Position numbers and translations under genes: made by a program. A DNA stretch of 32,000 bases from Formosa sp. Hel1_33_131 (GTDB lineage Bacteria > Bacteroidota > Bacteroidia > Flavobacteriales > Flavobacteriaceae), in the NCBI RefSeq assembly GCF_001735745.1, contig NZ_CP017260.1:1740001-1772000 (forward strand). The letters are read 5' to 3'. Shown piece by piece: positions 16,070 to 28,004 of the stretch (position 1 is the stretch's first letter; the number at the start of each line of letters is the position of its first letter). The notes beneath the pieces are model-generated. The model saw nothing but the letters and a program-made list of their open reading frames with translations. It had not been told where the DNA came from and made no database searches.

Positions 16070-16110
16070 ATCGCGGGATAGAGCAGTAGGTAGCTCGTCG
16101 GGCTCATAAC
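16070..16110 (+). repeat. attL: 41-nt direct repeat = 2 nt + positions 1-39 of tRNA-fMet (truncated copy)
   Basis: Identical to 27899-27939. Identity ends right after the anticodon loop, and the downstream sequence cannot complete a tRNA. Confidence 0.9.
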
Positions 16111-16181
16111 ACTCCTCACCACCCAATTTCAACTAATTTTATTAACTCATTTTCAAGTAGTTACAAATATATAATCCTACT

Positions 16182-16212
16182 TGTGTTATACGTGCTAGAC
16201 TCTTGTGTTAGA
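16182..16212 (+). repeat. two direct copies of TGTGTTA(T/G)A (candidate integrase arm-type sites), left arm
   Basis: cTTGTGTTAta at 16180-16190 and cTTGTGTTAGA at 16202-16212. The same 9-mer occurs twice near the right end. Confidence 0.55.
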
Positions 16213-16223
16213 TAAAATACGAA

Positions 16224-17459
16224 TTATCCAAAGACTTTAACCTTCATTAATTTCTCTTCTTCAACGTTTAATAAAAGTGGATTGATGTAGTGGTTTTCTA
16301 ATACCTTCATTGAAGTGTGAGATGACAATAATCTGGTATCACTTCCCATGGTATGAAATACCCAAGTAAGGTATGTTTTTCTCAGATGTTTTAGAGTAAA
16401 AGGAGTTTCGATACCTGCAGATTTTCTAAAATGGGTGAACGATCGAGAAACTTTCTCCATGATGGTATTAATTGTGTACGTATTCTCAGGATCGATGAGT
16501 TTGACATTTTTACCTTTCATTTGATCATATCCCATTTCTTTTAAAAGTTTCAATAGATCTTCATTAATAGGGGAGTACTTCTTTGGAGTATTCTTATTCC
16601 CTAATCGTTCAACCTTCAGGTTTCTAAATTGAAAGAATAGCACTCCGTTATTGCCTTGGATAATATCACTCCATTTTAGACTGAGTACTTCCTCTCTACG
16701 TCCACCAACAAGTAGAAAGAGTTTAAATGCGTTAGTCATCCAAGTAGCATACACGTAATCTCTTCTTCCATTGGTTCTTGTTTGTTGAAATGAAGACTTT
16801 GATTCTACCGCTGCTATAATTTTCTCAAACTCATCTTTGGTTAAAATCAAATTATCACCTGTAAGCACTTGTTTTCTAACACAATTTTTAAATGGATTCT
16901 TGATGTCTAACTCTTCGATTTCGATCAAGAACTTATAGAAAGAAGTTATGCTCGTTAAAACCTTGTTGAAGGTTTTGGGGTGAGGGTATTTAATCTCCAA
17001 TTGTCTGTAGAAAATAGAAACATCATTATTTCTGACATTCCCCGGTTTCATCTTCCTGAGATTGTGGTTGTTTTTCAAAGATTTAGCAAAAAGCGTACAA
17101 TACTTAATTAACTCCTTACGATGTTTATCTGATACCTCCTTTTTTAAATGTGCATATTGTGTATCTCCCTTAAGATATTGATCAAAATAAACGAGTGCTT
17201 CAGCAATATTCATTTTAGATCGATCAGGAACCGTTTCCTCCGCACCATTCTCGATTCTCCTTCTAAATTCAATACCCTCAACTACAGCATCAGCGTATAC
17301 CTTTGATTTTAGGAGTTTACTTCGGTGTTTACCAGTAACTCGATCAATAAAACACATCCGGAACACATGGTGGTCGTTGTGACGACAACCCCTGTTATTT
17401 TGTCTACATTTTTTACAGTAGATTTTGATTCCCGAATGTGAATTATTTGGTAATTTCAT
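16224..17459 (-). CDS. tyrosine site-specific integrase
   Basis: Catalytic-type motifs GGRREEV (R), LKHLRKTY (HxxR) and SHTSMKVLENHY (H...Y), and location at the island edge. Confidence 0.9.
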   Translation of the reverse strand: MKLPNNSHSGIKIYCKKCRQNNRGCRHNDHHVFRMCFIDRVTGKHRSKLLKSKVYADAVVEGIEFRRRIENGAEETVPDRSKMNIAEALVYFDQYLKGDTQYAHLKKEVSDKHRKELIKYCTLFAKSLKNNHNLRKMKPGNVRNNDVSIFYRQLEIKYPHPKTFNKVLTSITSFYKFLIEIEELDIKNPFKNCVRKQVLTGDNLILTKDEFEKIIAAVESKSSFQQTRTNGRRDYVYATWMTNAFKLFLLVGGRREEVLSLKWSDIIQGNNGVLFFQFRNLKVERLGNKNTPKKYSPINEDLLKLLKEMGYDQMKGKNVKLIDPENTYTINTIMEKVSRSFTHFRKSAGIETPFTLKHLRKTYLTWVFHTMGSDTRLLSSHTSMKVLENHYINPLLLNVEEEKLMKVKVFG

Positions 17460-17830
17460 TATTGATAAAGTTCTTGAAAGATGGATTCATGCTCCTTATT
17501 AGAGCTAATGTCCAGATTAAAATGGTAAGGCACAAATCCAGTGTCAAATTCCAAACAATCATGGTAGAGGAGTTGATGTAGTTCTTTCTGATCACCATAG
17601 ATTGATTCTAAACGTGGTTTCCATGAATTTGGATATCTTTTTACTAAATCTTCAGCAAAAGGTCTCCAGACCTCTTGTTCGACCTGTATCCGAAAAACAT
17701 ATTCCCTTCCATCTTTGTGGATGTGGATGTGATGATCCCTAAGCCACTTTTTGATCGAACGGTTGTCCTTTCGATTTATATATTGACCAACTTGATGTAG
17801 GTTTATGCGATTAGTAGAGTTATTATTCAT
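17459..17830 (-). CDS. small HTH protein, excisionase/recombination-directionality-like
   Basis: The N-terminal INLHQVGQYINRKDNRSIKKWLRDHHIHIHKDGREYVF resembles Xis/AlpA-type winged HTH. The stop overlaps the integrase ATG (TAATG). Confidence 0.45.
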   Translation of the reverse strand: MNNNSTNRINLHQVGQYINRKDNRSIKKWLRDHHIHIHKDGREYVFRIQVEQEVWRPFAEDLVKRYPNSWKPRLESIYGDQKELHQLLYHDCLEFDTGFVPYHFNLDISSNKEHESIFQELYQ

Positions 17831-17858
17831 TGCCTTAAAATTATTTTGATGATATCGT

Positions 17859-19409
17859 TTATTTATTTGAATTAATTGACTCTACTATTTTTGCTGCTGC
17901 TTCATCCAATGATGGAAAAGGATCCTCCAATTCTTTGAATTTGATTCCAGGTGTTAATCCCGTTTGTTTACTTATAGAATCAGTTAACAGATATTGTACC
18001 TCATACATCTTCTCTTTTTGACACAATACGCTATCGTGAATGGTGATGTATGGGATATTATTTTTACTCAGTTCCAAACAACCATGCCTCAAAAATAAAT
18101 AGGACTCACATCGTTGGATTAGATATGAAAATGGACTTTTTAAATGATTTACATTGGACATGAATTGAATGAGTTTACTTACATCCTTAAATTTTCTTTC
18201 CATGTGTTTAATGAGTTCTACATTGACCCTCCTATTTTTGTCTGAAAAATTAATGTAGAGTTGAAATTGATCTTTTACCTTCTCACGGGTCATCCCAATA
18301 TCATCACCAATGGTTTTATAGATGTCATCTTTAAAGCTTAATGCCCGATATTTTTGGATTCCTCTCTTTCTCCAAAACCTGCCACACATATATGATATGA
18401 ATGTATCCAGTATAGGATATTTTATATTAGTTAATACATTACCTTGATATGTAATATATTCTATGTAGTTATTATTAATAACATTAGACTCTATAACCAT
18501 ATGTCCAGTAAATTTTTCTAAAAAATCTTGATACTCCATAGAATCACATGAATACTTAAAGGATTTGTAATATTGGGGGAAAATTGAATAGAGATTATAT
18601 CCACCTTTGGTCTCAGTGAAAAATTTTTCTGTGAGAATGGTGGCAAGGGTAAATGGATGTGATGTAGTTATATCTACTTCAACCATCTGTTTTCCATTTG
18701 TCCTTAAAAAATATCGTAATTCCCTCTTAATAGAAGTGAATACCGAATTGACTCTATGATTACTTTTAGATACAGAATAATTAAATTCCTCTTTTTCGAT
18801 GTTCTCAATTACTTTATGTGATTTTTTGAAGTATTTCTTTACCTGTGTTTTATTTTCCTTTACCACCTTTGACAATACCCTTTTTTTCAATTCTTTCAGG
18901 TAATTTTCAGCAGCTGCTGCATCTATGGTAATTTGAGATTGATCCATAGCCTCTTTGATGTGAATGTATCTGTCATCAAAACATTTCATGTCCAATTCCC
19001 ATTCATTTTTAAGTTTTTCTTTTCGAGTGTCATACTTACCGTCAATTTCAACTTCAACAAAATCATTCCCCTCAAGCACCCATTGATTGAGTTTATATCC
19101 AGTGTGTTTAACACCAGGGATAGTTAAGTTATCTGATAGGACAATGGGACCATTTTCGGTCACATTTGAGTCCATTAGGATGGTTTTAACCTCATTAAAT
19201 CTATTACGAGTCATTCTGTTTACAACTTTACTTGAAAGAGGTTTAAAACCCCTCAAATATTGATAGTCTTTTGAATTGTATATTGGGGGTGTTATACACG
19301 ATAAGACATAATAAGCAGCGTCACAAATGGATTTCTTGCGCTGTGATCTTCCCGTTACGTATTGACTAAAATCCACTTGATTGATCGACATTGGAATATT
19401 AACTTTCAT
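17859..19409 (-). CDS. hypothetical 516-aa protein; possible divergent family-A-like polymerase/replication protein
   Basis: Long ORF, co-directional and tightly spaced within the int module. Motifs VEVDITTSHPFTLA, REKVKDQFQLYINF and ITIHDSV occur in the order of palm motifs A/B/C. Confidence 0.55.
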   Translation of the reverse strand: MKVNIPMSINQVDFSQYVTGRSQRKKSICDAAYYVLSCITPPIYNSKDYQYLRGFKPLSSKVVNRMTRNRFNEVKTILMDSNVTENGPIVLSDNLTIPGVKHTGYKLNQWVLEGNDFVEVEIDGKYDTRKEKLKNEWELDMKCFDDRYIHIKEAMDQSQITIDAAAAENYLKELKKRVLSKVVKENKTQVKKYFKKSHKVIENIEKEEFNYSVSKSNHRVNSVFTSIKRELRYFLRTNGKQMVEVDITTSHPFTLATILTEKFFTETKGGYNLYSIFPQYYKSFKYSCDSMEYQDFLEKFTGHMVIESNVINNNYIEYITYQGNVLTNIKYPILDTFISYMCGRFWRKRGIQKYRALSFKDDIYKTIGDDIGMTREKVKDQFQLYINFSDKNRRVNVELIKHMERKFKDVSKLIQFMSNVNHLKSPFSYLIQRCESYLFLRHGCLELSKNNIPYITIHDSVLCQKEKMYEVQYLLTDSISKQTGLTPGIKFKELEDPFPSLDEAAAKIVESINSNK

Positions 19410-19421
19410 ATTCTTGTGGTG

Positions 19422-20954
19422 TTATGCCGCAGCGGTTAATCGATCCTCACTCTCAATGATGAGTGCTTGTTGTAATTCAGATTCAGTTCTTTCTCCTAAT
19501 ACCATATTCATTCTCTTATTACAGAATTCAACTGATACAGGGTCGATGTCAACTCCAATTGCGTTACATCCGTTACGGGCAAAAACCTCAAGTCCCTGAC
19601 CCGCACCACAAAAAATATCAATACAAGTCATTCCTGGCAAAGTGTATGATTCTACAAATTGTTGATATACATCCATAGGTGCTGGTGCATCGTGGGTGAA
19701 ATCAGGGTCGTATTTTTTGTATTCGGAATCGTTAACTACAGGAGTAATAATGACATTTGAGACAACAGTTTCTTCTGCTTGAACAAAAAATCTATTTGTT
19801 CCATCTTTTGCTTTGTGACTTTTCTTAACCATTTTTTTCCCTTCCTTTGTCTTTTTCATTTTGGGATTGAAATTCACTTTCGCACCTTTCATTTTACACA
19901 CCAATATCGTCTCATCCACTGGTCTGAAAAAGTCTTTTAGTATTACAGGAGTTGAGTTGCTTTTGATCCAAGGACTTTTTCCAATGATTTCAACTCCTGA
20001 TTCAAGTAACATCATTTCGTAACGGGTAATTACACTTTTATAACCACCCGAATATGACTCCCCAATTATAATAACGATAACTCCATTTTCATCCATAATG
20101 TCGATTAGTGCTTCAATGAATTTTTTACTGTTATCAATGTACTCTTCTACTGTAGCTTCCTGACCATATTTCATTTCACCTTGGTTTCGATATTTTTTCA
20201 TCGTCCTATACGTTGGGGAGAACATTGCGATATGAGGTCGATACTTTTTAAGATTTGATAAGTCCACGCTACTTTGATTAAACACCTTAAACCAAACATC
20301 TTTATTTACTGCTTCGGCTTTGATTTTCTCTTTAGTACGCTTTTTGTCGTCTTTATCTCTGCTACTCATCATTAATTTGTATGCTGCATCAATTTTGTAC
20401 GTGCCGTTATCAATACCATCAATTAAACCAAGGCTATTATCGGTTTTTTCGTAATCATACACAGACATTAACTTGCGTAATGTTCTACTTGAAAAATTAA
20501 GTCCTGAAAGCATACAAGCAATTTCAAATCTGTTCTTACCTGCGGTCCCAAATTCGTTTTCATTATCCAATTTATCCATTCCAAGCAAGTCATTTCTTTT
20601 GCCTTGGTTAGTGCCTATTAGCCCTAAGATATGTTCAATGTTGAAACATTTTTCAGATAGGTGCACCTTCGTCTTTAAATTATAAGTAATACGAGTATTT
20701 AATATTTCTGAATCAGGAATGTCAAGTACAATACAATCGAGAGATTCAAAATTTCCAGCTTCAATAGCGGAATAATAGCGATGACCGCCGTCAATAATGT
20801 AATAGATACCATCCCTCAATACAACAATCACCGCTGTCTTTTTAGGAAAGTGTTTCATTGAGAATGTAATGAATGGGTTGGGTTGGTATTTTTTGATTTT
20901 CAATACCAACGGGTGAATTCGTATTTCACTTAATTTTACTCTTGTTGTTTCCAT
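19422..20954 (-). CDS. ParB-like nuclease domain fused to a beta-class N4/N6 DNA methyltransferase
   Basis: N-terminal ParB/Srx motif YYIIDGGHRYYSA; motif IV-like MFSPTY; C-terminal HDAPAP...CIDIFCGAGQG...GVDID (AdoMet motif I after motif IV = beta permutation). Confidence 0.85.
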   Translation of the reverse strand: METTRVKLSEIRIHPLVLKIKKYQPNPFITFSMKHFPKKTAVIVVLRDGIYYIIDGGHRYYSAIEAGNFESLDCIVLDIPDSEILNTRITYNLKTKVHLSEKCFNIEHILGLIGTNQGKRNDLLGMDKLDNENEFGTAGKNRFEIACMLSGLNFSSRTLRKLMSVYDYEKTDNSLGLIDGIDNGTYKIDAAYKLMMSSRDKDDKKRTKEKIKAEAVNKDVWFKVFNQSSVDLSNLKKYRPHIAMFSPTYRTMKKYRNQGEMKYGQEATVEEYIDNSKKFIEALIDIMDENGVIVIIIGESYSGGYKSVITRYEMMLLESGVEIIGKSPWIKSNSTPVILKDFFRPVDETILVCKMKGAKVNFNPKMKKTKEGKKMVKKSHKAKDGTNRFFVQAEETVVSNVIITPVVNDSEYKKYDPDFTHDAPAPMDVYQQFVESYTLPGMTCIDIFCGAGQGLEVFARNGCNAIGVDIDPVSVEFCNKRMNMVLGERTESELQQALIIESEDRLTAAA

Positions 20955-20994
20955 TTTTTATTTATTTTAAGTTAAAAAGTTATGTCTTTTTTGT

Positions 20995-21017
20995 TTGGAT
21001 AAGAATATTTTATCCAA
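20995..21017. promoter_or_regulatory. palindromic operator-like site TTGGATAA-N7-TTATCCAA upstream of the ParB-MTase operon
   Basis: Perfect 8-bp inverted repeat, 41 bp upstream of the 20954 start codon. Confidence 0.45.
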
Positions 21018-21028
21018 TAATTTTTGTT

Positions 21029-21054
21029 AAAAAAAATGGAGTTTTACGTCCATT
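21029..21054 (-). terminator. weak intrinsic terminator after the 185-aa gene
   Basis: Minus strand reads aatgga-cgtaaaac-tccatt followed by eight T. Confidence 0.4.
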
Positions 21055-21077
21055 TTGTATCTATAAAGAACTTTTAA

Positions 21078-21635
21078 TTAAAAGTTAACTATCACTCTAT
21101 TCCCATCCAAATCAATTCCTGTTTCACCATCAGCTCCAAGATATTCGATACAGTACTGGTCCCACATCAAATAAAGGATATGTTTTTCTATTTCTTCTAA
21201 CTGATGTAATGGTATATTGCCATTGACTAATACCTTATTCTCAGGTCCAATATTTCTTGAAAACCAACGCACTTTTTTTCCAAAGTGGTCAATCCAAAAT
21301 GCTCTCATTACAATATACTTTACACCAGATTTCTTATTTTTATTTAGTGTCTTATAGAGTCTTACATTGAAAATCAATAATAGTTTTTCAATTCGAATTT
21401 TATATTGGTCAATTAAATTATACAAATTGATTGGTGCAAGTTTATTGCCATCTTTATCAGTAATATCTTCTGTGGTAGACAATAAGTTTTTGAATTCTGC
21501 CTTAACCTCCTCGAACTCCAAGTTAACCTCGTCCCAAAAATCACTATTTTGTTTGTTCTTTGGTTTATGATCATCGATCCAATCCTCAAACTTGAATATA
21601 TAATTCCAATTTTTATTGTAAAAGTCGTTTTTCAT
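21078..21635 (-). CDS. hypothetical protein, C-terminal AP2/Arm-like DNA-binding-type region
   Basis: The ORF is open to 21701, but a canonical promoter lies inside that extension, so MKNDFYNK at 21635 is the likely start. The C-terminal YIVMRAFWIDHFGKKVRWFS resembles three-stranded-sheet DNA-binding domains. Confidence 0.55.
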   Translation of the reverse strand: MKNDFYNKNWNYIFKFEDWIDDHKPKNKQNSDFWDEVNLEFEEVKAEFKNLLSTTEDITDKDGNKLAPINLYNLIDQYKIRIEKLLLIFNVRLYKTLNKNKKSGVKYIVMRAFWIDHFGKKVRWFSRNIGPENKVLVNGNIPLHQLEEIEKHILYLMWDQYCIEYLGADGETGIDLDGNRVIVNF

Positions 21636-21658
21636 TTGTGTCTTTATATTTTGTGGCA

Positions 21659-21689
21659 CAAATATAGACACAATTATTTTATGCACAAA
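21659..21689 (-). promoter_or_regulatory. Bacteroidota-type promoter TTTG-N19-TATATTTG
   Basis: On the minus strand, TTTG is at 21689-21686 and TATATTTG at 21666-21659, 24 nt before the ATG at 21635. It is embedded in the imperfect palindrome 21638-21671. Confidence 0.6.
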
Positions 21690-21829
21690 ATTTTTTTTCA
21701 ACTTTTTGCAATTTCGGCAAGAAGTAAATTATTTACGGTGGTAAAACTCAACTACACCCCCCTACAAAAAATAATTTATGACTCCATGTCTTTTTCAGTT
21801 GTATGACATATTTATAGGGAAACACTTGT

Positions 21830-22006
21830 ATGAAAGATAAAAAATCTAAAAGGGTAATCGTTCGGATAACTGAGAATCAGTTCAAAAATTTGATGGATTG
21901 TGTGATCAACGAAAATAAAAGTAGATATACAGCTTCTGATCTAATCAGAGAATCTGTAATCGAAAAATTAAATAAAATAAAAGAAGATGCTAACAGGAAG
22001 AAATAA
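21830..22006 (+). CDS. ribbon-helix-helix (CopG/MobC-like) small DNA-binding protein, 58 aa
   Basis: Not in the ORF track (<60 aa). MKDKKSKRVIVRITENQFKNLMDCVINENKSRYTASDLIRESVIEKLNKIKEDANRKK shows a beta-strand/helix/helix pattern typical of RHH. Confidence 0.6.
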   Translation: MKDKKSKRVIVRITENQFKNLMDCVINENKSRYTASDLIRESVIEKLNKIKEDANRKK

Positions 22007-22184
22007 TTTAGATTATGAATATTTCAATCGATATTTAAAGAATTGTGGATATAACGACATAAGCGAAATGGAGTTATTAAATGATTTTTTTAAAGAACGA
22101 TTAAATATTCCTCAAGAACATGAATTAGACCCTGAAAAGGTAATTTTCTTGAATGAATTGGTAAGTTTTTGTCGTAAAAAATAA
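21987..22184 (+). CDS. hypothetical 65-aa protein, overlaps the RHH gene by 20 nt
   Basis: The ORF start lies inside the RHH 3' end. No recognisable motif. Confidence 0.4.
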   Translation: MLTGRNNLDYEYFNRYLKNCGYNDISEMELLNDFFKERLNIPQEHELDPEKVIFLNELVSFCRKK

Positions 22185-22334
22185 TCAAGTTAAAAACCTT
22201 AAAATACCAACTGGCGCAGAAAACAATTCTCGATTTCATCTGTTGAATCCCTGATTTTGATCAATGTATTACATTAAATTATTATCGGCACGATTGGTTG
22301 GAATATTGAGCCATTTGTGAAATAAGGACCGTTT

Positions 22335-22784
22335 TTATTTATTTTTCAAATACAGTTTTGTAAGTGTTTCCCCCATTGTGTTACATAGAATTTCCTGTGG
22401 GTGGTGCGCCAATGAGAATTGTTCCAATTGATCCTGATAGAGTTTAGATTTAGTTTCTGATGTAATTAGGTAGTAATGGAAATATTCATGGATAACGGTA
22501 TTGATGAGTTCTCGTCGTATTAGATTGTTATCCCTGTATATTGTAATTGTATTGTTATAGAAACAATACTCTCCCGCAAGATGAGATTTACCTTCAACTA
22601 AAGTCAGTAGTGGTTTTTGTTTACGTATTGGATAAAGATGAAGGCACCAGCTTAATACATCGTCTGCCAAATGCAATTGACAGTCTTCACCATCAGGTTT
22701 TATAAATCTAATTATTTTACAAATCAGATTCAATAAGAACAACACTCCAACTATAATGAAATACCATTTAAAAAAAGTATCCAC
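22335..22784 (-). CDS. membrane-anchored HExxH (zincin-like, SprT/DUF45-like) protein
   Basis: N-terminal TM helix WYFIIVGVLFLLNLICKII and motif VIHEYFHYYL. The start overlaps the recombinase stop by 1 nt. Confidence 0.6.
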   Translation of the reverse strand: MDTFFKWYFIIVGVLFLLNLICKIIRFIKPDGEDCQLHLADDVLSWCLHLYPIRKQKPLLTLVEGKSHLAGEYCFYNNTITIYRDNNLIRRELINTVIHEYFHYYLITSETKSKLYQDQLEQFSLAHHPQEILCNTMGETLTKLYLKNK

Positions 22785-23425
22785 TACAGAATCCTTTTTA
22801 CTTTCATTACAGTATTGGTGGACTTATTTGTTATTGCACTAATATTTCGGATTGACAGCCCTCTATTTATTAACCGAACAACATCCGAGTGACGATTTAA
22901 TACTTTTTCATCACTATCAATATCTCCTTTTTTTCTTCCTACACTTTTCTTTCCATTTTTCTTGATATGATTGCGGTAACCTGACTGTAATCGAGATAGC
23001 GTCATCTTACTTTCCATATTTGCAACGCTGAACAATATTTGGACCATAAACATTGATAAACTATTTGGTGTCTTATCCTCGTTGAGCGTCTCAAGATTAA
23101 AATTCTTTATATAAAGTCCGACTTTTAAATCATGTAGGAGTTGTATGTTTTGAAGGGACTGAAGTACCGACCTTCCTATTCGACTTAACTCCCAAACTAA
23201 TATTTTATCAATTGATCCCTCTTTCGCCAGTTCCAACATCTTGGAAAAAACTGGTCTTTGATCGTTCTTTTTGAATCCACTTACCTTTTCTTCAAAAACT
23301 TCAACTACCTCATAGTTCATTCTCTTAGCATATTGTTGCAGTTCCTTTGTTTGTCTCTCTGTGTCCTGTCTTTCTGACTCTGAACTAACTCTTGAGTAAA
23401 TTACAGTCTTAATCATATGTATCAA
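22784..23425 (-). CDS. small serine recombinase (resolvase/invertase family)
   Basis: N-terminal VIYSRVSSESERQDTERQ (catalytic Ser context), WELSRIGRS, and a C-terminal HTH (RGLSIRNISAITNKSTNTV). The true start may be the MIKTVIY Met at 23416. Confidence 0.9.
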   Translation of the reverse strand: MIHMIKTVIYSRVSSESERQDTERQTKELQQYAKRMNYEVVEVFEEKVSGFKKNDQRPVFSKMLELAKEGSIDKILVWELSRIGRSVLQSLQNIQLLHDLKVGLYIKNFNLETLNEDKTPNSLSMFMVQILFSVANMESKMTLSRLQSGYRNHIKKNGKKSVGRKKGDIDSDEKVLNRHSDVVRLINRGLSIRNISAITNKSTNTVMKVKRIL

Positions 23426-23530
23426 TTTAATCCTTTGGGTTTCTGTGATGCTATGATACAGCGGATTAATGGGGTACCGGAATAATAAATGCTAAATTTT
23501 TGCTACAATAATTGTTTTGAGACACTTTTT

Positions 23531-23652
23531 GTGTGCGGATAATATTTCGTGAAGGATCACCGTCACGGGTTGATCATAATCGTTGTTATCCGCACACCCA
23601 AACGGTACTTGATCTACTCGACGGTCCACAGGTGGGATTATTATCCACACAC
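23531..23652. repeat. three copies of the 12-mer GTGTG(C/T)GGATAA (one forward, two inverted)
   Basis: gtgtgcggataa 23531-23542; ttatccgcacac 23586-23597; ttatccacacac 23641-23652. The cluster begins 105 bp upstream of the serine recombinase ORF start. Confidence 0.8.
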
Positions 23653-23795
23653 CTACTATACTACCCCATGGCGGTCCCCCCTGCAGGACTTCCTGCAGCC
23701 AAGCCCCCTCTTAAAAATGGGTATTTCGACTTTGCCACAGGGGGCTCAGTACTTCGAATGAAATTTTTTTCCAAAAAAATGGGTTAGGGGGGGTT
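23531..23795. other. GC-rich, hairpin-dense non-coding element (candidate structured RNA, recombination site cluster or oriT-like region)
   Basis: Visibly higher G+C than the flanks, C- and G-runs, several perfect inverted repeats, and no credible ORF. Confidence 0.5.
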
Positions 23796-23840
23796 ACTTC
23801 ATAAATAAAATTTTCAGATTTTTTTCAGAAAATTGACCTT

Positions 23841-24041
23841 TTATACTTTAAGTAGTTTCTCCATAATTTTGACCATCGCGAAGGTGTCTAACTTACAGTA
23901 CTCCAGGAGTTGTCTCCTTGTTTCTTCTGCATCACCCTGAAATGTTCCATTTACCATAGAAAGAAAAGTATTGGATGCAGTGTTTATACTATTATAGTGT
24001 AGCCGTTTTTTAATTAAAAGACTTCGTTCAAACACCCTCAA
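23841..24041 (-). pseudogene. 3'-terminal remnant of a DUF2779-like (exonuclease-fold) gene
   Basis: The end reads ...RRQLLEYCKLDTFAMVKIMEKLLKV, matching the C-terminal LLxYCxLDTxAMV signature of that family as I remember it. Only ~45-65 codons remain. Confidence 0.55.
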
Positions 24042-24253
24042 AGATTAAGAGAAGATCTCCCAGTGATTATAAGACCAGTCCAAAATAGTATTGAAAAAAA
24101 GTTTAATGCATCTTTATAGTCTATTTCATTATATTTGAATTAAAATAAACGAGAACAAAGATCCTGTTATCCGGAAACACAGATCTATAAACAGGCCGTT
24201 TGTTCTACATATAACGAGTTGTGCATAATGCAGAAACCGAATTAAGAAAAAAC

Positions 24254-24286
24254 TTTGCACATTGCATTGAAAATTATCTATCTTTG
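24254..24286 (+). promoter_or_regulatory. candidate promoter TTTG-N21-TATCTTTG for the DUF6660/TBDR pair
   Basis: TTTG at 24254-24257 and TATCTTTG at 24279-24286. The ATG at 24292 would give an almost leaderless transcript. Confidence 0.4.
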
Positions 24287-24291
24287 TGATA

Positions 24292-24609
24292 ATGAAATTT
24301 ACTACTATCATATTATCATTATTAATACTTGCTTTGTCAATGAAACCTTGTTCTGACGGAAATAATGCCGAAGACAAACACCAAGACGAAATAAGTGCTA
24401 ATCATAATCACCAAAATGATAGTGATGATACTTGTCCTGTAACTTGTATTTGCAATTGTTGCGGAACATCTATTACTTATCAAGTAATTAAAACTCTTGA
24501 TTTGGGATTAAAAAACCGAATTTCTACAGAAATATTATTTGTTTATCAATCAACATACAGATTTGATTTTCACTCAAATATTTGGCAACCGCCACAATTG
24601 ATTAGTTAA
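24292..24609 (+). CDS. DUF6660-like small secreted Cys/His-rich protein
   Basis: Signal-like N-terminus, LSMKPCSDG, His-rich spacer, DDTCPVTCICNCCG, and C-terminal IWQPPQL. This pattern recurs upstream of TonB receptors in Bacteroidota (from memory). An alternative GTG start lies at 24286. Confidence 0.6.
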   Translation: MKFTTIILSLLILALSMKPCSDGNNAEDKHQDEISANHNHQNDSDDTCPVTCICNCCGTSITYQVIKTLDLGLKNRISTEILFVYQSTYRFDFHSNIWQPPQLIS

Positions 24610-24660
24610 ATTTTAGACTCAAAGTCAAAAAAATTAAATTAATCAATTTTTACATTTTCA

Positions 24661-26844
24661 ATGAATAAATATATATTGAGCATAATGCTCACAGTTATTA
24701 CCTGCTTTTCAATAAAAGCACAAACATCTTATTTAAAAATAAAAGTAATTTCAGAATCCGAAAACGAGCCTTTATTTGGCGCAACAGTTTATTTTGAGGA
24801 GTTAGAAAAAGGAGCAGTAACCGACTTTGATGGAATTGTAACTTTTACCAAAATTCCAAACGGAAAACATATCGCAATAATTTCTTATTTAGGTTTTGAA
24901 ACTCTCAAAACAACTATTCAAGCACCAATAAATTCAACTTTAATTTTCAAATTAAAAAATAGTGGAAACCAATTAGACGAAATTGTGTTACAATCTTCAC
25001 GAAGCACAAGAACAGTTAAGAAAATTCCCACAAGAATAGAGTTTATTGGCACAGAAGAATTGGGAGAAAAAGCAATTATGAACCCAACAAACATTTCGAT
25101 GGTTCTTCGTGAAAGTACAGGAATACAAATGCAACAAACTTCTTTAAGTAGTGGAAATACAAATATCAGAATTCAAGGACTTGACGGACGCTATACGCAA
25201 CTTTTAAGAGATGGATTTCCACTTTATGGCGGTTTTTCAAGTGGCTTGAGCATATTACAAATTCCACCATTAGATTTACAACAATTTGAAATTATTAAAG
25301 GAAGTTCATCAACACTTTATGGTGGTGGAGCAATTGCAGGTTTAATAAATATGGTTTCAAAAACACCAGATGAAGAACCAGCTTTGGATATTATGCTAAC
25401 ACAAACCCAAGCATTAGGAAGTACAGCAAATGTATTCTACAGCAAACGAAATGAGAAATTTGGTGTTTCACTTTACGCTTCTGGTCATTCTCAAAAAGTT
25501 TACGACCCAGAAAATGATGGTTTTAGTAATTTACCAAAAACTACATCAATTTCATTCAACCCAAAATTCTTTTATTATCCATCAGAAAAAACAACGTTTT
25601 GGTTTGGTTTAAATGGAACTTACGATGACAGAATTGGTGGAGATGTAACAAAAATTGAAAGCGGAGAAAATGGAATTCATCAATATACAGAAGAAAACAT
25701 ATCAAAAAGAGTAAGCAGTCAAGCAGTTTATAAAACGCAAATAGATTCAATAAGCTCATTAAATATAAAAAATAGTATTTCATTTTTCGATAGAAATCTT
25801 ACTATTCCAGGTTTTAGTTTTGATGGTAAACAATTCAATACGTTTACAGAAGTTACCTATAAAAAAACTTCTTTAAAAACAGATTGGATTTTTGGAGCAA
25901 ACTTATACACTTCAAACTTTGATGAAAATAATAATGCAACTTTACAACGTGACCAAACAGATATAACTTATGGAATGTTTGCAAACAGCATTCTTGATAT
26001 TTCAGATAATTGGATTTTAGAAACTGGATTGCGAGCAGATTACAATACTGATTTCGGTATTTTTCCACTTCCAAAAATTTCTTTGCTTTATAAAAATGAT
26101 AGCGGATTTTCATGCAGAATTGGTGGTGGTTTAGGCTACAAAATTCCAGATATTTTTACAGAAGAGGCTGAATTTATCAATTTTGAAAATGTAATTGGCA
26201 TTGATAAATCTTCATTAAAAGCAGAACGTTCTTATGGTGTAAATCTTGATTTCAATTATCAAACACGTTTATTTGAAACCATTGGTTTTTCCATTAATCA
26301 ACTTTTTTATGTTACAGCGATTAATAACGGATTGTTATTAAATAGTACAAATAACGGTTTGTTTGCATTTGAAAATGCAACTGACGAAATTTTAAGCAAA
26401 GGAGCAGAAACAAATATTAAGTTTACTTATAAAGATTTTAGATGGTTTTTAAATTATGCACTTATAGACACGAAACTGAACTATTTGGCAGGAAATCCAC
26501 AAAAACCATTGACAGCAAAACATAACGCAGGAAGTGTATTAATGTACGAATCTGATAAATGGCGAATTGGTTACGAGACATTTTATACAGGAAAGCAGTT
26601 TTTATCAAACGGAACTGAAACGACAGATTTTGTCACAATGGGATTATTGTTAATGCGAAACTTTAAATTTGGTAGTGCTTTTGTGAATTTTGAAAATTTC
26701 ACAGACAGACGACAAAGTAGGTTTTCGCCTTTGGTTTTACCACCACACGAAAATCCAGAATTTCCAGAAATTTATGCACCAACAGACGGCTTTATTTTTA
26801 GCGTAGGAATTATTATTAAACCATTTGGTAACGAAGAACATTAA
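24661..26844 (+). CDS. TonB-dependent outer-membrane receptor with N-terminal carboxypeptidase-regulatory-like domain
   Basis: Signal peptide, CarbopepD_reg-like beta sandwich (GATVYFEELEKGAVTDFDGIVTF), plug (IEFIG..., IRIQGLDGRYTQLLRDGFP), a long beta-barrel, and a terminal aromatic-rich strand. Confidence 0.9.
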   Translation: MNKYILSIMLTVITCFSIKAQTSYLKIKVISESENEPLFGATVYFEELEKGAVTDFDGIVTFTKIPNGKHIAIISYLGFETLKTTIQAPINSTLIFKLKNSGNQLDEIVLQSSRSTRTVKKIPTRIEFIGTEELGEKAIMNPTNISMVLRESTGIQMQQTSLSSGNTNIRIQGLDGRYTQLLRDGFPLYGGFSSGLSILQIPPLDLQQFEIIKGSSSTLYGGGAIAGLINMVSKTPDEEPALDIMLTQTQALGSTANVFYSKRNEKFGVSLYASGHSQKVYDPENDGFSNLPKTTSISFNPKFFYYPSEKTTFWFGLNGTYDDRIGGDVTKIESGENGIHQYTEENISKRVSSQAVYKTQIDSISSLNIKNSISFFDRNLTIPGFSFDGKQFNTFTEVTYKKTSLKTDWIFGANLYTSNFDENNNATLQRDQTDITYGMFANSILDISDNWILETGLRADYNTDFGIFPLPKISLLYKNDSGFSCRIGGGLGYKIPDIFTEEAEFINFENVIGIDKSSLKAERSYGVNLDFNYQTRLFETIGFSINQLFYVTAINNGLLLNSTNNGLFAFENATDEILSKGAETNIKFTYKDFRWFLNYALIDTKLNYLAGNPQKPLTAKHNAGSVLMYESDKWRIGYETFYTGKQFLSNGTETTDFVTMGLLLMRNFKFGSAFVNFENFTDRRQSRFSPLVLPPHENPEFPEIYAPTDGFIFSVGIIIKPFGNEEH

Positions 26845-26849
26845 AAATT

Positions 26850-26990
26850 ATGCAAAAAATAGAACAATTTTTAGACTCAAAAAATATTAGAGTTACAGCA
26901 ATGCGATTATTGATTTATAAGTTTCTTGCCGAAAAACAAGTTGCTGTAACATTAAGCGATATAGAAAATGCTTTCGAAAAAGCAGTCTAA
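26850..26990 (+). pseudogene. 5' fragment (46 codons) of a Fur-family metalloregulator gene
   Basis: MQKIEQFLDSKNIRVTAMRLLIYKFLAEKQVAVTLSDIENAFEKA then V-stop. This matches the N-terminal winged-helix start of Fur/Zur-like repressors but lacks the rest of the DNA-binding and metal-binding domains. Confidence 0.65.
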
Positions 26991-27156
26991 CTTACACTCG
27001 TTACTTAAGTATTTTAAAGGAAGGAGAATTGTATATCGTCCAAGTTAAGTGGATCGTCAAAAGAAGAAATTGAGCTGCAACTTCTGTCAATAGGGGGAGG
27101 GGAAATCAAAATTCAAACATCTCAACCTCCTTATTTTAATTTCTTAATTTTGACTC

Positions 27157-27693
27157 ATGTCAAGCACTAATTCAAAAGATAAAGACAAACCTTCAAAAAG
27201 AATTGAATACCGAGGGAAAAATGTCCGAGTTTCAAGAACAGGAGGTGTTTCTGCAACGAAAACATTTAAGGGTGATGGAATTGGTGCTACCATAAACACC
27301 AAACACGGACTTCGTCTTCACAAACGATTATTTAAGGGTGCAAGAATGGGTTTCCAAAACGGTAACTTTCAGTTTATTGGGAGGTATAAAAGTGGCCCAT
27401 TCAATTTCAATGTCTCAAAAAACGGATTAAGTACATCCTTAAAAAATAAACGAGGTTCCTATAACATCTTCAAACCCAATTATTCCAGTTTCAAATTAGG
27501 TGGTGTTCAAGTAAGAGGAAAAAACGCTGCTACTTTTCAAATGATCTACATGGTGATCATTCTCTTTGTTAATTTCATTAAAGTATTTTGGCACATTTTC
27601 ATCTCTTTTTTGTGGTTTGGTTTTTTATCCATTAAATGGATTGTAGACTTTACAATTGGATTTTTCAAAGGTTTTAAAGAAATTGATTCTTAA
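27157..27693 (+). CDS. DUF4236-like protein with C-terminal transmembrane region
   Basis: Repeated basic beta-hairpin-like segments (VRVSRTGGVSATK, NVSKNGLSTSLKNKRGSYN) and two C-terminal hydrophobic helices. Confidence 0.5.
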   Translation: MSSTNSKDKDKPSKRIEYRGKNVRVSRTGGVSATKTFKGDGIGATINTKHGLRLHKRLFKGARMGFQNGNFQFIGRYKSGPFNFNVSKNGLSTSLKNKRGSYNIFKPNYSSFKLGGVQVRGKNAATFQMIYMVIILFVNFIKVFWHIFISFLWFGFLSIKWIVDFTIGFFKGFKEIDS

Positions 27694-27754
27694 TAATTCA
27701 GAAATATTAATGATAACAAGTTTGATTGAAATTTACAAAAATAAATCTCGAGTC

Positions 27755-27817
27755 TGTGTTAGATTTTTGTGCTACAAAATCCTATGAATTACCATTAAAT
27801 GCAGGTTTTGTGTTAGA
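27755..27817 (+). repeat. two direct copies of TGTGTTAGA (candidate arm-type sites), right arm
   Basis: TGTGTTAGA at 27755-27763 and 27809-27817, in the same orientation as the left-arm copies. Confidence 0.55.
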
Positions 27818-27882
27818 ACTAAAAACACCTTCCTTTTTTTAATTTATATTCAAATAAACCTTGTAGAACTTAAAAACTATCT

Positions 27883-27890
27883 TATATTTG
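27883..27890 (+). promoter_or_regulatory. TATATTTG -7 box (with cTTG 19 nt upstream) driving the intact tRNA-fMet
   Basis: Matches TAnnTTTG, 10 nt before tRNA position 1. Confidence 0.55.
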
Positions 27891-27898
27891 CAGTCTAA

Positions 27899-27973
<75 letters not shown>

Positions 27974-28004
27974 CAAAAGGCTAAAAAGCCATTAAGTCAA
28001 TGAT

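Follow-up and report, generated by a model that had tools for sequence, protein, structure and literature searches.

A conserved array of 12-bp repeats upstream of a small serine recombinase gene in flavobacterial islands: a candidate res-like region

Short repeats clustered in front of a small serine recombinase gene raise the question of which protein reads them and whether they form part of a recombination site. Such a cluster lies in the window, the 32,000-nucleotide stretch of DNA analyzed here, where the original prediction proposed a res site, an inverton, or a crossover site. We recovered the three 12-mers with exactly the sequences and coordinates that had been given: GTGTG(C/T)GGATAA (GTGTGYGGATAA) has three exact matches in 32 kb compared with 0.00 expected from 100 shuffles, all of them confined to 122 bp upstream of the recombinase gene, with center-to-center distances of 55 and 55 bp. 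A chance origin of the repeats is rejected. Copies 1 and 2 form the perfect 12-bp inverted repeat that had been described (12/12), and copies 1 and 3 pair as an 11/12 inverted repeat. The predicted distance of 105 bp to the open reading frame is correct when measured from the TTG at 23425; measured from the ATG at 23416, which as a start agrees with the 210-aa length of the homologues, it is 114 bp. Copy 2 is the distal arm of a 67-bp imperfect palindrome; the cgtga/tcacg mini-hairpin noted between copies 1 and 2 is present but is not conserved among relatives.

The proposed degenerate fourth copy at 24167-24180, which has two mismatches to the 12-mer, proved to be a chance-level match. Allowing up to two mismatches, we found seven matches in the window versus 3.8 expected; the matrix score of this one (11.2) equals that of five unrelated window positions, and it is without the invariant GCAC core. 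The near-palindrome TTCCTGTTATCCGGAA (24160-24175), which contains this match, is outside the 12-mer family; it is constant in L018, L119, and L027, and its neighbors vary. The coordinates of the features discussed below are collected in Table 1.

Table 1. Features of the island backbone and of the repeat region. Positions are those of the window, and scores are from the family matrix.
Feature	Position	Strand	Sequence, size, or match	Remark
Tyrosine integrase	16224-17459	-		One island end
516-aa protein (p516)	17859-19409	-		No Pfam, NCBIfam, or PHROG match
ParB-like N-terminal/N6-N4 DNA methylase fusion	19422-20954	-	PF01555, E = 3e-26	
Two overlapping small ORFs	21830-22006; 21987-22184	+	58 aa; 65 aa	Convergent with the recombinase operon
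Copy 4	22282-22293	+	TTATCGGCACGA	Score 15.2, like copy 3; new, found with the family matrix
Operon enclosed by the sites	22335-23416	-		
149-aa protein (p149)	22335-22784	-	N-terminal membrane helix; HEYFH (HExxH)	Start overlaps recombinase stop
Small serine recombinase	22784-23416	-	PF00239, E = 1.3e-32	ORF from TTG, 22784-23425
Inverted TGT-type copy	23418-23425	+	TGTATCAA	Abuts the start codon; at -13/-14 in L019, L034, L037, L042, and L029
Direct repeat	23497-23507	-	TGTAGCAAAAA	17 bp apart from TGTCTCAAAAC
Direct repeat	23514-23524	-	TGTCTCAAAAC	
Copy 1	23531-23542		GTGTGCGGATAA on +; TTATCCGCACAC in the recombinase-gene direction (-)	Promoter-proximal; score 20.5
Inter-arm segment	23548-23582		Two conserved TGATC(A/C) boxes, 23552-23559 and 23571-23576, around CCGTCACGG	
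Copy 2	23586-23597		TTATCCGCACAC on +	Exact reverse complement of copy 1; score 22.2; 36 loci
Copy 3	23641-23652		GTGTGTGGATAA on -; TTATCCACACAC on +	Score 15.5
Conserved non-coding block	23653-23840			Between array and cargo
66-aa ORF	23841-24041	-		C-terminal remnant of the DUF2779 gene

The window is a piece of Flavobacteriia chromosome with gldL, gldM, and gldN, and the array belongs to an 11.8-kb island (16111-27940) integrated in tRNA-Met. Its bounds are the two copies of a direct repeat, at 16070-16110 and 27900-27940, which comprises the tRNA-Met promoter together with the 5' half as far as the anticodon loop; the intact tRNA-Met occupies 27901-27974. The island replaces the 5' half of the tRNA and not the usual 3' end. 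Related islands (L004, L017, and L071) likewise adjoin tRNA-Met. Starting from the integrase, the minus-strand backbone encodes a 123-aa protein, the 516-aa protein, the ParB-methylase fusion, and a 207-aa protein. After the 207-aa gene come the two small plus-strand ORFs, then p149, the serine recombinase, the repeats, and the non-coding block, past which lie the C-terminal remnant of a DUF2779 gene and a cargo of DUF6660, TonB-dependent receptor, and DUF4236 genes.

The AlphaFold model of the 516-aa protein (pLDDT 79.6) matches family A DNA polymerases (Bst Pol I, E = 1.6e-4, probability 1.0), and its invariant residues D246, K379, and HD458-459 resemble motifs A, B, and C. If the modeled likeness to a family A polymerase holds, the island may replicate. 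The ParB-methylase fusion is typical of the orphan methylases of mobile elements; L016 has separate ParB_N and methylase genes. The 58- and 65-aa ORFs are conserved in many relatives and have no family match, and their layout resembles that of toxin-antitoxin pairs beside Tn3-family resolvase genes.

The DUF2779 gene retains 124 aa in L001-L003; in L016 it is complete (492 aa) and preceded by Eco57I-like and DEAD/MZB genes. These remnants suggest repeated cargo replacement with breakpoints inside an ancestral defense operon. Across 65 loci, the 1.2 kb of cargo lying 0.5-1.7 kb upstream of the recombinase fell into 22 unrelated clusters, among them type I restriction genes, the Eco57I-like/DEAD-MZB/DUF2779 set, Cus/Czc efflux, and an integrase with Fic. 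Because the variable cargo is on the array side, the repeats sit at the junction of backbone and cargo.

We then considered the recombinase itself. It aligned over its full length to Sin (residues 7-207), keeping the residues Y, R, S, E, R, and R: YSRVSS is present, E occupies the D36 position (as in Sin), and the last two arginines are found in ELSRIGR. At the D67 position the enzyme has Ser, as do 3guv and 3g13; D67 is non-essential in Tn3 resolvase (PMC2794168). By these residues the enzyme looks catalytically competent. Residues 176-205 of the 210-aa protein match PHROG 5497, annotated as “HTH DNA binding protein,” which supplies the C-terminal HTH. The best PDB matches were the catalytic domains of IS607-type and large serine recombinases, followed by Sin, which alone among solved small recombinases aligns along the full length. 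The NCBIfam Mpi model scored 51.7 bits, compared with a cut-off of 272. The family is very conserved and comprises 1076 proteins at E ≤ 1e-20, mostly from marine metagenomes. The second protein of the operon, p149, exists as two types that are 30% identical and alternate behind near-identical recombinases; its SprT-like match was sub-threshold (E = 0.03).

To compare the locus with its relatives, we collected 127 loci through an exact-protein look-up, a species-genome scan, and a scan of metagenomes for the conserved promoter sequence. The same order of genes between recombinase and integrase appears repeatedly among these loci, with heavy module swapping. A large serine recombinase takes the place of the integrase in L004 and L019, and these minimal elements, without the methylase and polymerase genes, still carry arrays. 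Searching homologous recombinase loci for the same repeat, as had been recommended, returned a homologous motif at the same position: T-W-A-T-Y-S-G-C-A, with a conserved ATT just 5' of this core, is found at the same place in about 125 related loci in one to four copies. In the 127 loci, the 12-mer occurs only upstream of the recombinase gene. Near-identical arrays are followed by neighboring proteins that swap types, and the recombinase is their only strongly conserved partner.

The flavor of the array is lineage-specific, and its copies are of mixed orientation or all direct. Two inverted copies are carried by 25 loci, three copies in the arrangement of the window by 11, and one inverted plus two direct copies by 3; another 22 have direct copies only (TAATCGGCA / TTATTTGCACAC; two to three scored, with a weaker fourth in some), and a single TAATTGGCATAG is found in the remaining marine loci. 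Copies are spaced 39 to 88 bp apart, and their helical phase is not constant. Read in the gene direction, the marine relatives share a block of A/T and G runs, the array, a near-invariant AAAAGTGTCTCAAAACAATTATTGTAGCAAAAATTTAGC... sequence, and a conserved leader. One copy of the array invariably lies 6-7 bp from TGTCTCAAAAC; in the window this is copy 1, at 6 bp, and a site homologous to it is at the same position in essentially all marine relatives. At the other end, approximately 30 two-copy loci are homologous to the window only as far as 23596, at the edge of copy 2. Copy 3 belongs to an exact extra 55-bp unit and is limited to the eleven three-copy arrays (the window, L027, L045, L055, L075, L086, L091-L093, L100, and L113). 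Many freshwater relatives keep the recombinase and the TGTCTCAAAA repeats with no array; because the recombinase is retained there, the array is accessory. Further afield, Bacteroides plasmids carry recombinase homologues of 40-43% identity near ParA genes; in plasmid p5482, where the recombinase lies beside rhuM and near ParA, we found no comparable array.

Two rearranged loci were seen in this collection. In L071 (1-1240; also L099 and L108), a remnant consisting of the leader, the promoter, three motif copies, and the block lies approximately 500 bp from tRNA-Met; nothing is left of the recombinase gene or the backbone, and the leader is adjoined by a chromosomal gene for a secreted protein. 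L124 (1-420) has a second copy of the motif, the block, and the DUF2779 end upstream of a truncated recombinase; in this second copy, other sequence takes the place of the promoter side, starting exactly where the motif ends (TTTTAATCGGCAAA|ACCTATT). No match to the left flank of L124 was found among the collected sequences, and the second junction reflects either a rearrangement at the site or a chimeric assembly.

We measured constraint as the mean pairwise identity of 17 diverged type-A elements with intact genes. The 89 bp holding copy 1, the direct repeats, and the promoter reached 97.5%, compared with 80% in the distal part of the array, 85% in coding sequence, and 71% at third codon positions. 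TGTGC and TAA are invariant in both arms of the palindrome. The middle triplet of the distal arm varies (GGA, GAG, GAA, GAC, AGA, or CGA), the proximal arm never compensates, and the perfect 12/12 inverted repeat is found only in three-copy arrays. This pattern of conservation fits recognition of duplex DNA by a protein and not a selected hairpin.

Scanning with the family matrix revealed a new copy 4, located 42 bp past the stop of the p149 gene, the second in the operon. Copy 4 has the opposite orientation to copy 1 and the same orientation as copies 2 and 3, and its offset is the same in eight other loci (L001, L045, L055, L079, L081, L086, L092, and L100). In elements of the TAAT flavor the site reads TAATTGGCAC(G/A)A, and the flavor of the copy-4 site (TTAT or TAAT) agrees with that of the array in at least 23 loci and disagrees in 2. 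With copy 4 past the operon and the array upstream of it, the sites therefore bracket the promoter-recombinase-p149 unit. In L016, L022-L024, L047, and L049, detectable homology to the window spans the array to the copy-4 site and extends no further.

Other conserved elements surround the 12-mers. The direct repeats of the TGTCTCAAAA type are conserved family-wide, including relatives of 67-72% identity, and at 41-49% identity the relatives carry a TGT-type motif of their own, again in a layout of two direct copies and one inverted copy. The layout is thus retained down to 41% identity, and the repeat sequence changes along with the protein. TGTCTCAAAAC and TGTAGCAAAAA are the best candidates for the recombinase's own half-sites, and safer ones than the 12-mers. 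Within the inter-arm segment, GATCA, GTGA, GGTGATCC, and a central AA vary little or not at all among 18 variants, and a GGTGATCC-like box lies approximately 19 bp 5' of many 12-mers and recurs in the units of other lineages. The TGATC boxes may be weak partner half-sites, in which case 23532-23559 and 23571-23596 would make up sites of 28 and 26 bp.

The non-coding block adjoins the array in all marine relatives, regardless of cargo. It contains phased A/T runs, TTGACC..AAGTCGAAA, TAAGGGGGGAT, and two to three tandem 11-13-bp units of TCCnGCAGGGrG, with the G runs on the recombinase-sense strand; an Rfam search of the block gave no match. The block could be an R-loop-type origin or a further binding array. 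A 16-bp inverted repeat with 81% complementarity (23409-23424 / 23454-23469) lies in the recombinase leader and overlaps the start codon, where it may exert translational or operator control. Scans with the sigma-70 and Bacteroidetes promoter consensus sequences were uninformative.

Which protein, then, would use the array? We consider it quite possible, and the reading to be preferred, that the 12-mers are recognized by a protein of the island that binds specific DNA sequences, most probably the recombinase, and that 23497-23652 together with 22282-22293 forms a res-like recombination/control region. The array is real and functional; we infer the identity of its binder and strand exchange at the array. 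Because no crossover site can be named and the recognition helix is nearly constant despite the changes of flavor, “res” is a plausible analogy rather than a demonstrated identity. The original idea that the clustered 12-bp sites belong to the recombinase is still the best-supported one, with a conserved position, constraint, and a co-varying copy 4 in its favor; its inverton versions are not supported.

If the recombinase is the binder, its dimers would occupy TGTCTCAAAAC/TGTAGCAAAAA over the promoter, providing both autoregulation and a regulatory site similar to Sin site II. Further dimers would bind two to three upstream sites, each with a strong half (TGTGC-NNN-TAA) and a weak TGATC half. 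The wrapped complex would then recombine two directly repeated copies of the region, such as might arise from multimers of the excised circle or from tandem islands at tRNA-Met. Recombination would restore single copies and, as a by-product, would leave backbones and cargos reassorted at the junction.

Several observations speak for the recombinase as the binder. The distance from the strong half to the TGATC box is 26, 28, or 34 bp in different units, and serine resolvases tolerate variable spacing, with 25, 28, and 34 bp in the Tn3/gamma-delta res. The sites 23571-23596, 23532-23559, and 23497-23524 together cover approximately 101 bp, the size of a res, and the region as a whole (23497-23597, or to 23652 with the extra unit) lies 72-236 bp upstream of the ATG, in agreement with the location and length of a Tn3-like res. 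A resolution role would also fit the ParA-adjacent homologues on Bacteroides plasmids. Moreover, the gene immediately downstream of the array belongs to PF00239 and has its catalytic set intact, and the Tn3-like, SGI1, and Sin res sites are also upstream of the recombinase gene (PMC12217951, PMC2428073).

Against it, the recognition helix NKS(T/S)NTV.KVK is almost invariant, whereas the motif varies between TTATCCGCAC, TAATCGGCA, and TAATTGGCA. The correlation of helix KST versus KSS with flavor is suggestive and is broken by L025, L016, and L047. With the family matrix we found no second half-site scoring >6 in 23380-23900 and no strong (inverted) partner beside any 12-mer. The three subsites of Tn3, each an inverted 12-bp pair, have no equivalent here; the partners are weak TGATC boxes, and the proximal site takes the form of a direct repeat. 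We found no convincing crossover site with dyad symmetry in the region, and the center of the palindrome differs by 1 bp among variants (43 versus 44 bp). We also looked for a sharp site-specific breakpoint; pairwise homology breakpoints were scattered 0-205 bp upstream of the anchor and gave no support. The freshwater relatives that have the gene but no array and the variable helical phase of the copies also count against the recombinase.

In a second explanation, rather unlikely in our judgment, the 12-mers serve as an operator or as a replication or transfer origin for another protein of the island, a helper, or the host, and the recombinase binds only the TGTCTCAAAA repeats. Motif flavor varies and the helix does not, and the family-wide TGT-type repeats, which co-vary with the protein in distant relatives, make the better recombinase sites. 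The island encodes a family A DNA-polymerase-like protein, and the adjacent block of A/T and G runs with its short tandem repeats would suit an origin. However, arrays and block persist in elements without polymerase or methylase, array type is tracked by no backbone protein, and the recombinase operon is specifically the one that the sites bracket; no Rep, relaxase, or other DNA-binding family was detected among the small island ORFs, and we found no co-variation of motif flavor with p149, the small ORFs, the methylase, or p516. Mixed orientation and the 39-88 bp spacing are unlike tandem iterons. Iterons of a plasmid origin were rejected on these grounds, on the core length (12-16 bp compared with tandem repeats of 17-22 bp), on the identity of the adjacent gene, which is a recombinase and not rep, and on the presence of arrays where the polymerase-like gene is missing. 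An origin or transfer function, especially of the G-run block given the PolA-like gene, is possible and is a question separate from the 12-mers.

Less probable again is a cargo-exchange or cassette-excision platform formed by the motif-bracketed promoter-recombinase-HExxH cassette, with the G-run block as a possible R-loop origin for the PolA-like enzyme. If this doubtful proposal were true, tandem or circular islands would recombine so that any backbone could acquire any cargo, and the island would hold a serine-recombinase counterpart of an integron-like hotspot.

It is very unlikely that the repeats constitute an invertible switch, either of the short segments between copy 1 and copies 2 or 3 or of a Hin-like 1.24-kb cassette (22294-23530) between copies 1 and 4. 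The geometry invites the idea: copy 1 is inverted relative to copies 2 and 3 and makes a perfect 12-bp inverted repeat with copy 2, the inverted copies 1 and 4 enclose the promoter, recombinase, and p149, much as hin is located inside its own invertible segment, and L016, L022-L024, L047, and L049 are homologous to the window over the stretch between the two sites. Inverted flanking repeats are therefore present, but both orientations were not found in related genomes. Between the inverted arms, the 43-44-bp segment points the same way in 35 of 35 contigs; these come from many samples and represent 15 variants with differences at up to a quarter of their bases. The 11 three-copy arrays are also uniform in orientation. 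In approximately 100 loci the promoter always points toward the array and p149 toward the small ORFs. These orientations were read from assemblies and represent the majority state, which rare flipping would escape. A segment of 43 bp is also too short for the looping of known serine invertases. In 22 relatives only direct copies occur, and those arrays therefore cannot invert. The inverton versions of the original prediction are thus not supported, and its larger invertible segment of approximately 640 bp depends on the chance-level match at 24167. A working phase switch is not supported.

A cluster of DnaA boxes for replication initiation or DnaA-dependent regulation is highly improbable. Copy 3 contains TTATCCACA, a perfect match to the consensus TTATNCACA, copies 1 and 2 contain TTATCCGCA, one base off, and an A/T-rich block is near; yet boxes with up to one mismatch are not enriched (13 in the window versus 10.6 expected), and conservation reaches GCACAC and the 5' ATT, outside the 9-mer. 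Relatives carry TAATCGGCA, TAATTGGCA, or TTATTTGCA at the position of the box, and TTATCTGCA replaces copy 3 in other three-copy arrays. DnaA boxes were rejected because they are not conserved in relatives. Just as implausible is a role of the 67-bp palindrome as a folded single strand or RNA hairpin (single-strand origin, attC-like site, or leader): 23526-23602 folds well as ssDNA (-17.8 kcal/mol, z = -4.6), but changes in the distal arm are never compensated, 12 of 15 variants have 8-11 of the 12 arm positions paired, and sister arrays are direct-only.

The remaining candidates can be dismissed briefly. A structured RNA found no Rfam match at E ≤ 1 except a spurious plant miRNA. The original prediction had allowed that the 12-mer might turn out to be the terminal repeat of a dispersed MITE/IS, and we saw no other exact copy in the window, nor any in the 127 related loci away from the stretch upstream of the recombinase gene. 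A viral origin was rejected, as the promoter anchor had no match in IMG/VR, and so were arm-type sites of the tyrosine integrase, the array being 4-7 kb from both island ends and persisting where a large serine recombinase replaces the integrase.

The recombinase family is abundant yet unstudied, and it marks the cargo point of islands in marine and freshwater Flavobacteriaceae that carry at least 22 unrelated cargo sets, including restriction and DISARM-like defense genes, metal efflux, Fic proteins, and TonB receptors. Should the repeats prove to be its recombination and control site, they would offer a simple sequence handle for finding such islands and their cargo boundaries in metagenomes, and they would add a new and tractable res architecture in which strong half-sites stand alone, copy number varies, and one site lies past the operon. 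Should a different protein bind the repeats, they would represent an unrecognized origin or control element of a replicative island.

How does the region compare with known systems? Like Hin/hix, Gin/gix, and Bacteroides Mpi, it has inverted short sites near or enclosing a small serine recombinase gene, and the outer TTATC of the 12-mer presumably resembles the outer end of hix/gix half-sites. Unlike in those systems, no second orientation is seen in approximately 100 independent assemblies, relatives have direct-only arrays, and there are no 26-bp dyad sites.

The Tn3/gamma-delta res (114 bp, sites I-III) shares with it a 12-bp recognition unit, a position upstream of the resolvase gene and overlapping the promoter, several sites within approximately 100-120 bp, and variable half-site spacing, the centers of sites I and II being approximately five helical turns apart, compared with 55 bp here. 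However, Tn3 subsites are inverted pairs of related half-sites, whereas here the partner halves are weak or absent; the promoter-proximal site is a direct repeat, unlike Tn3, and the recombinase is only distantly related to Tn3 resolvase. In Sin resH and beta six (86 bp), site I is inverted, site II is head-to-tail, and a spacer binds HU/IHF. The likeness is in the gene-proximal regulatory site, which consists of two direct-repeat half-sites, as do TGTCTCAAAAC and TGTAGCAAAAA with their 17-bp separation; the Sin site II duplex measures 29 bp (PMC2428073). The present region differs in its extra 12-mer sites, in having no clear inverted site I at the expected distance, and in its phased A/T runs, which lie outside the sites and not between them.

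The closest analogue is probably the resolution system of the Salmonella genomic island 1 (SGI1) family. The SGI1 res is Tn3-like, spans 107 bp with three dyad subsites of 28, 30, and 25 bp, and was shown by EMSA and resolution assays, whereas the region described here has lone strong 12-mers whose number (one to four) and orientation vary by lineage, and places one copy beyond the operon. SGI1 also acquires cargo via res-hunting transposition with 5-bp duplications, which we did not see here. In both cases, an integrative element has an integrase and a separate small serine recombinase, whose gene has the site immediately upstream, where the conserved backbone meets the variable cargo; in SGI1, the role of Res/S027 with its res site is to remove island multimers (PMC12217951).
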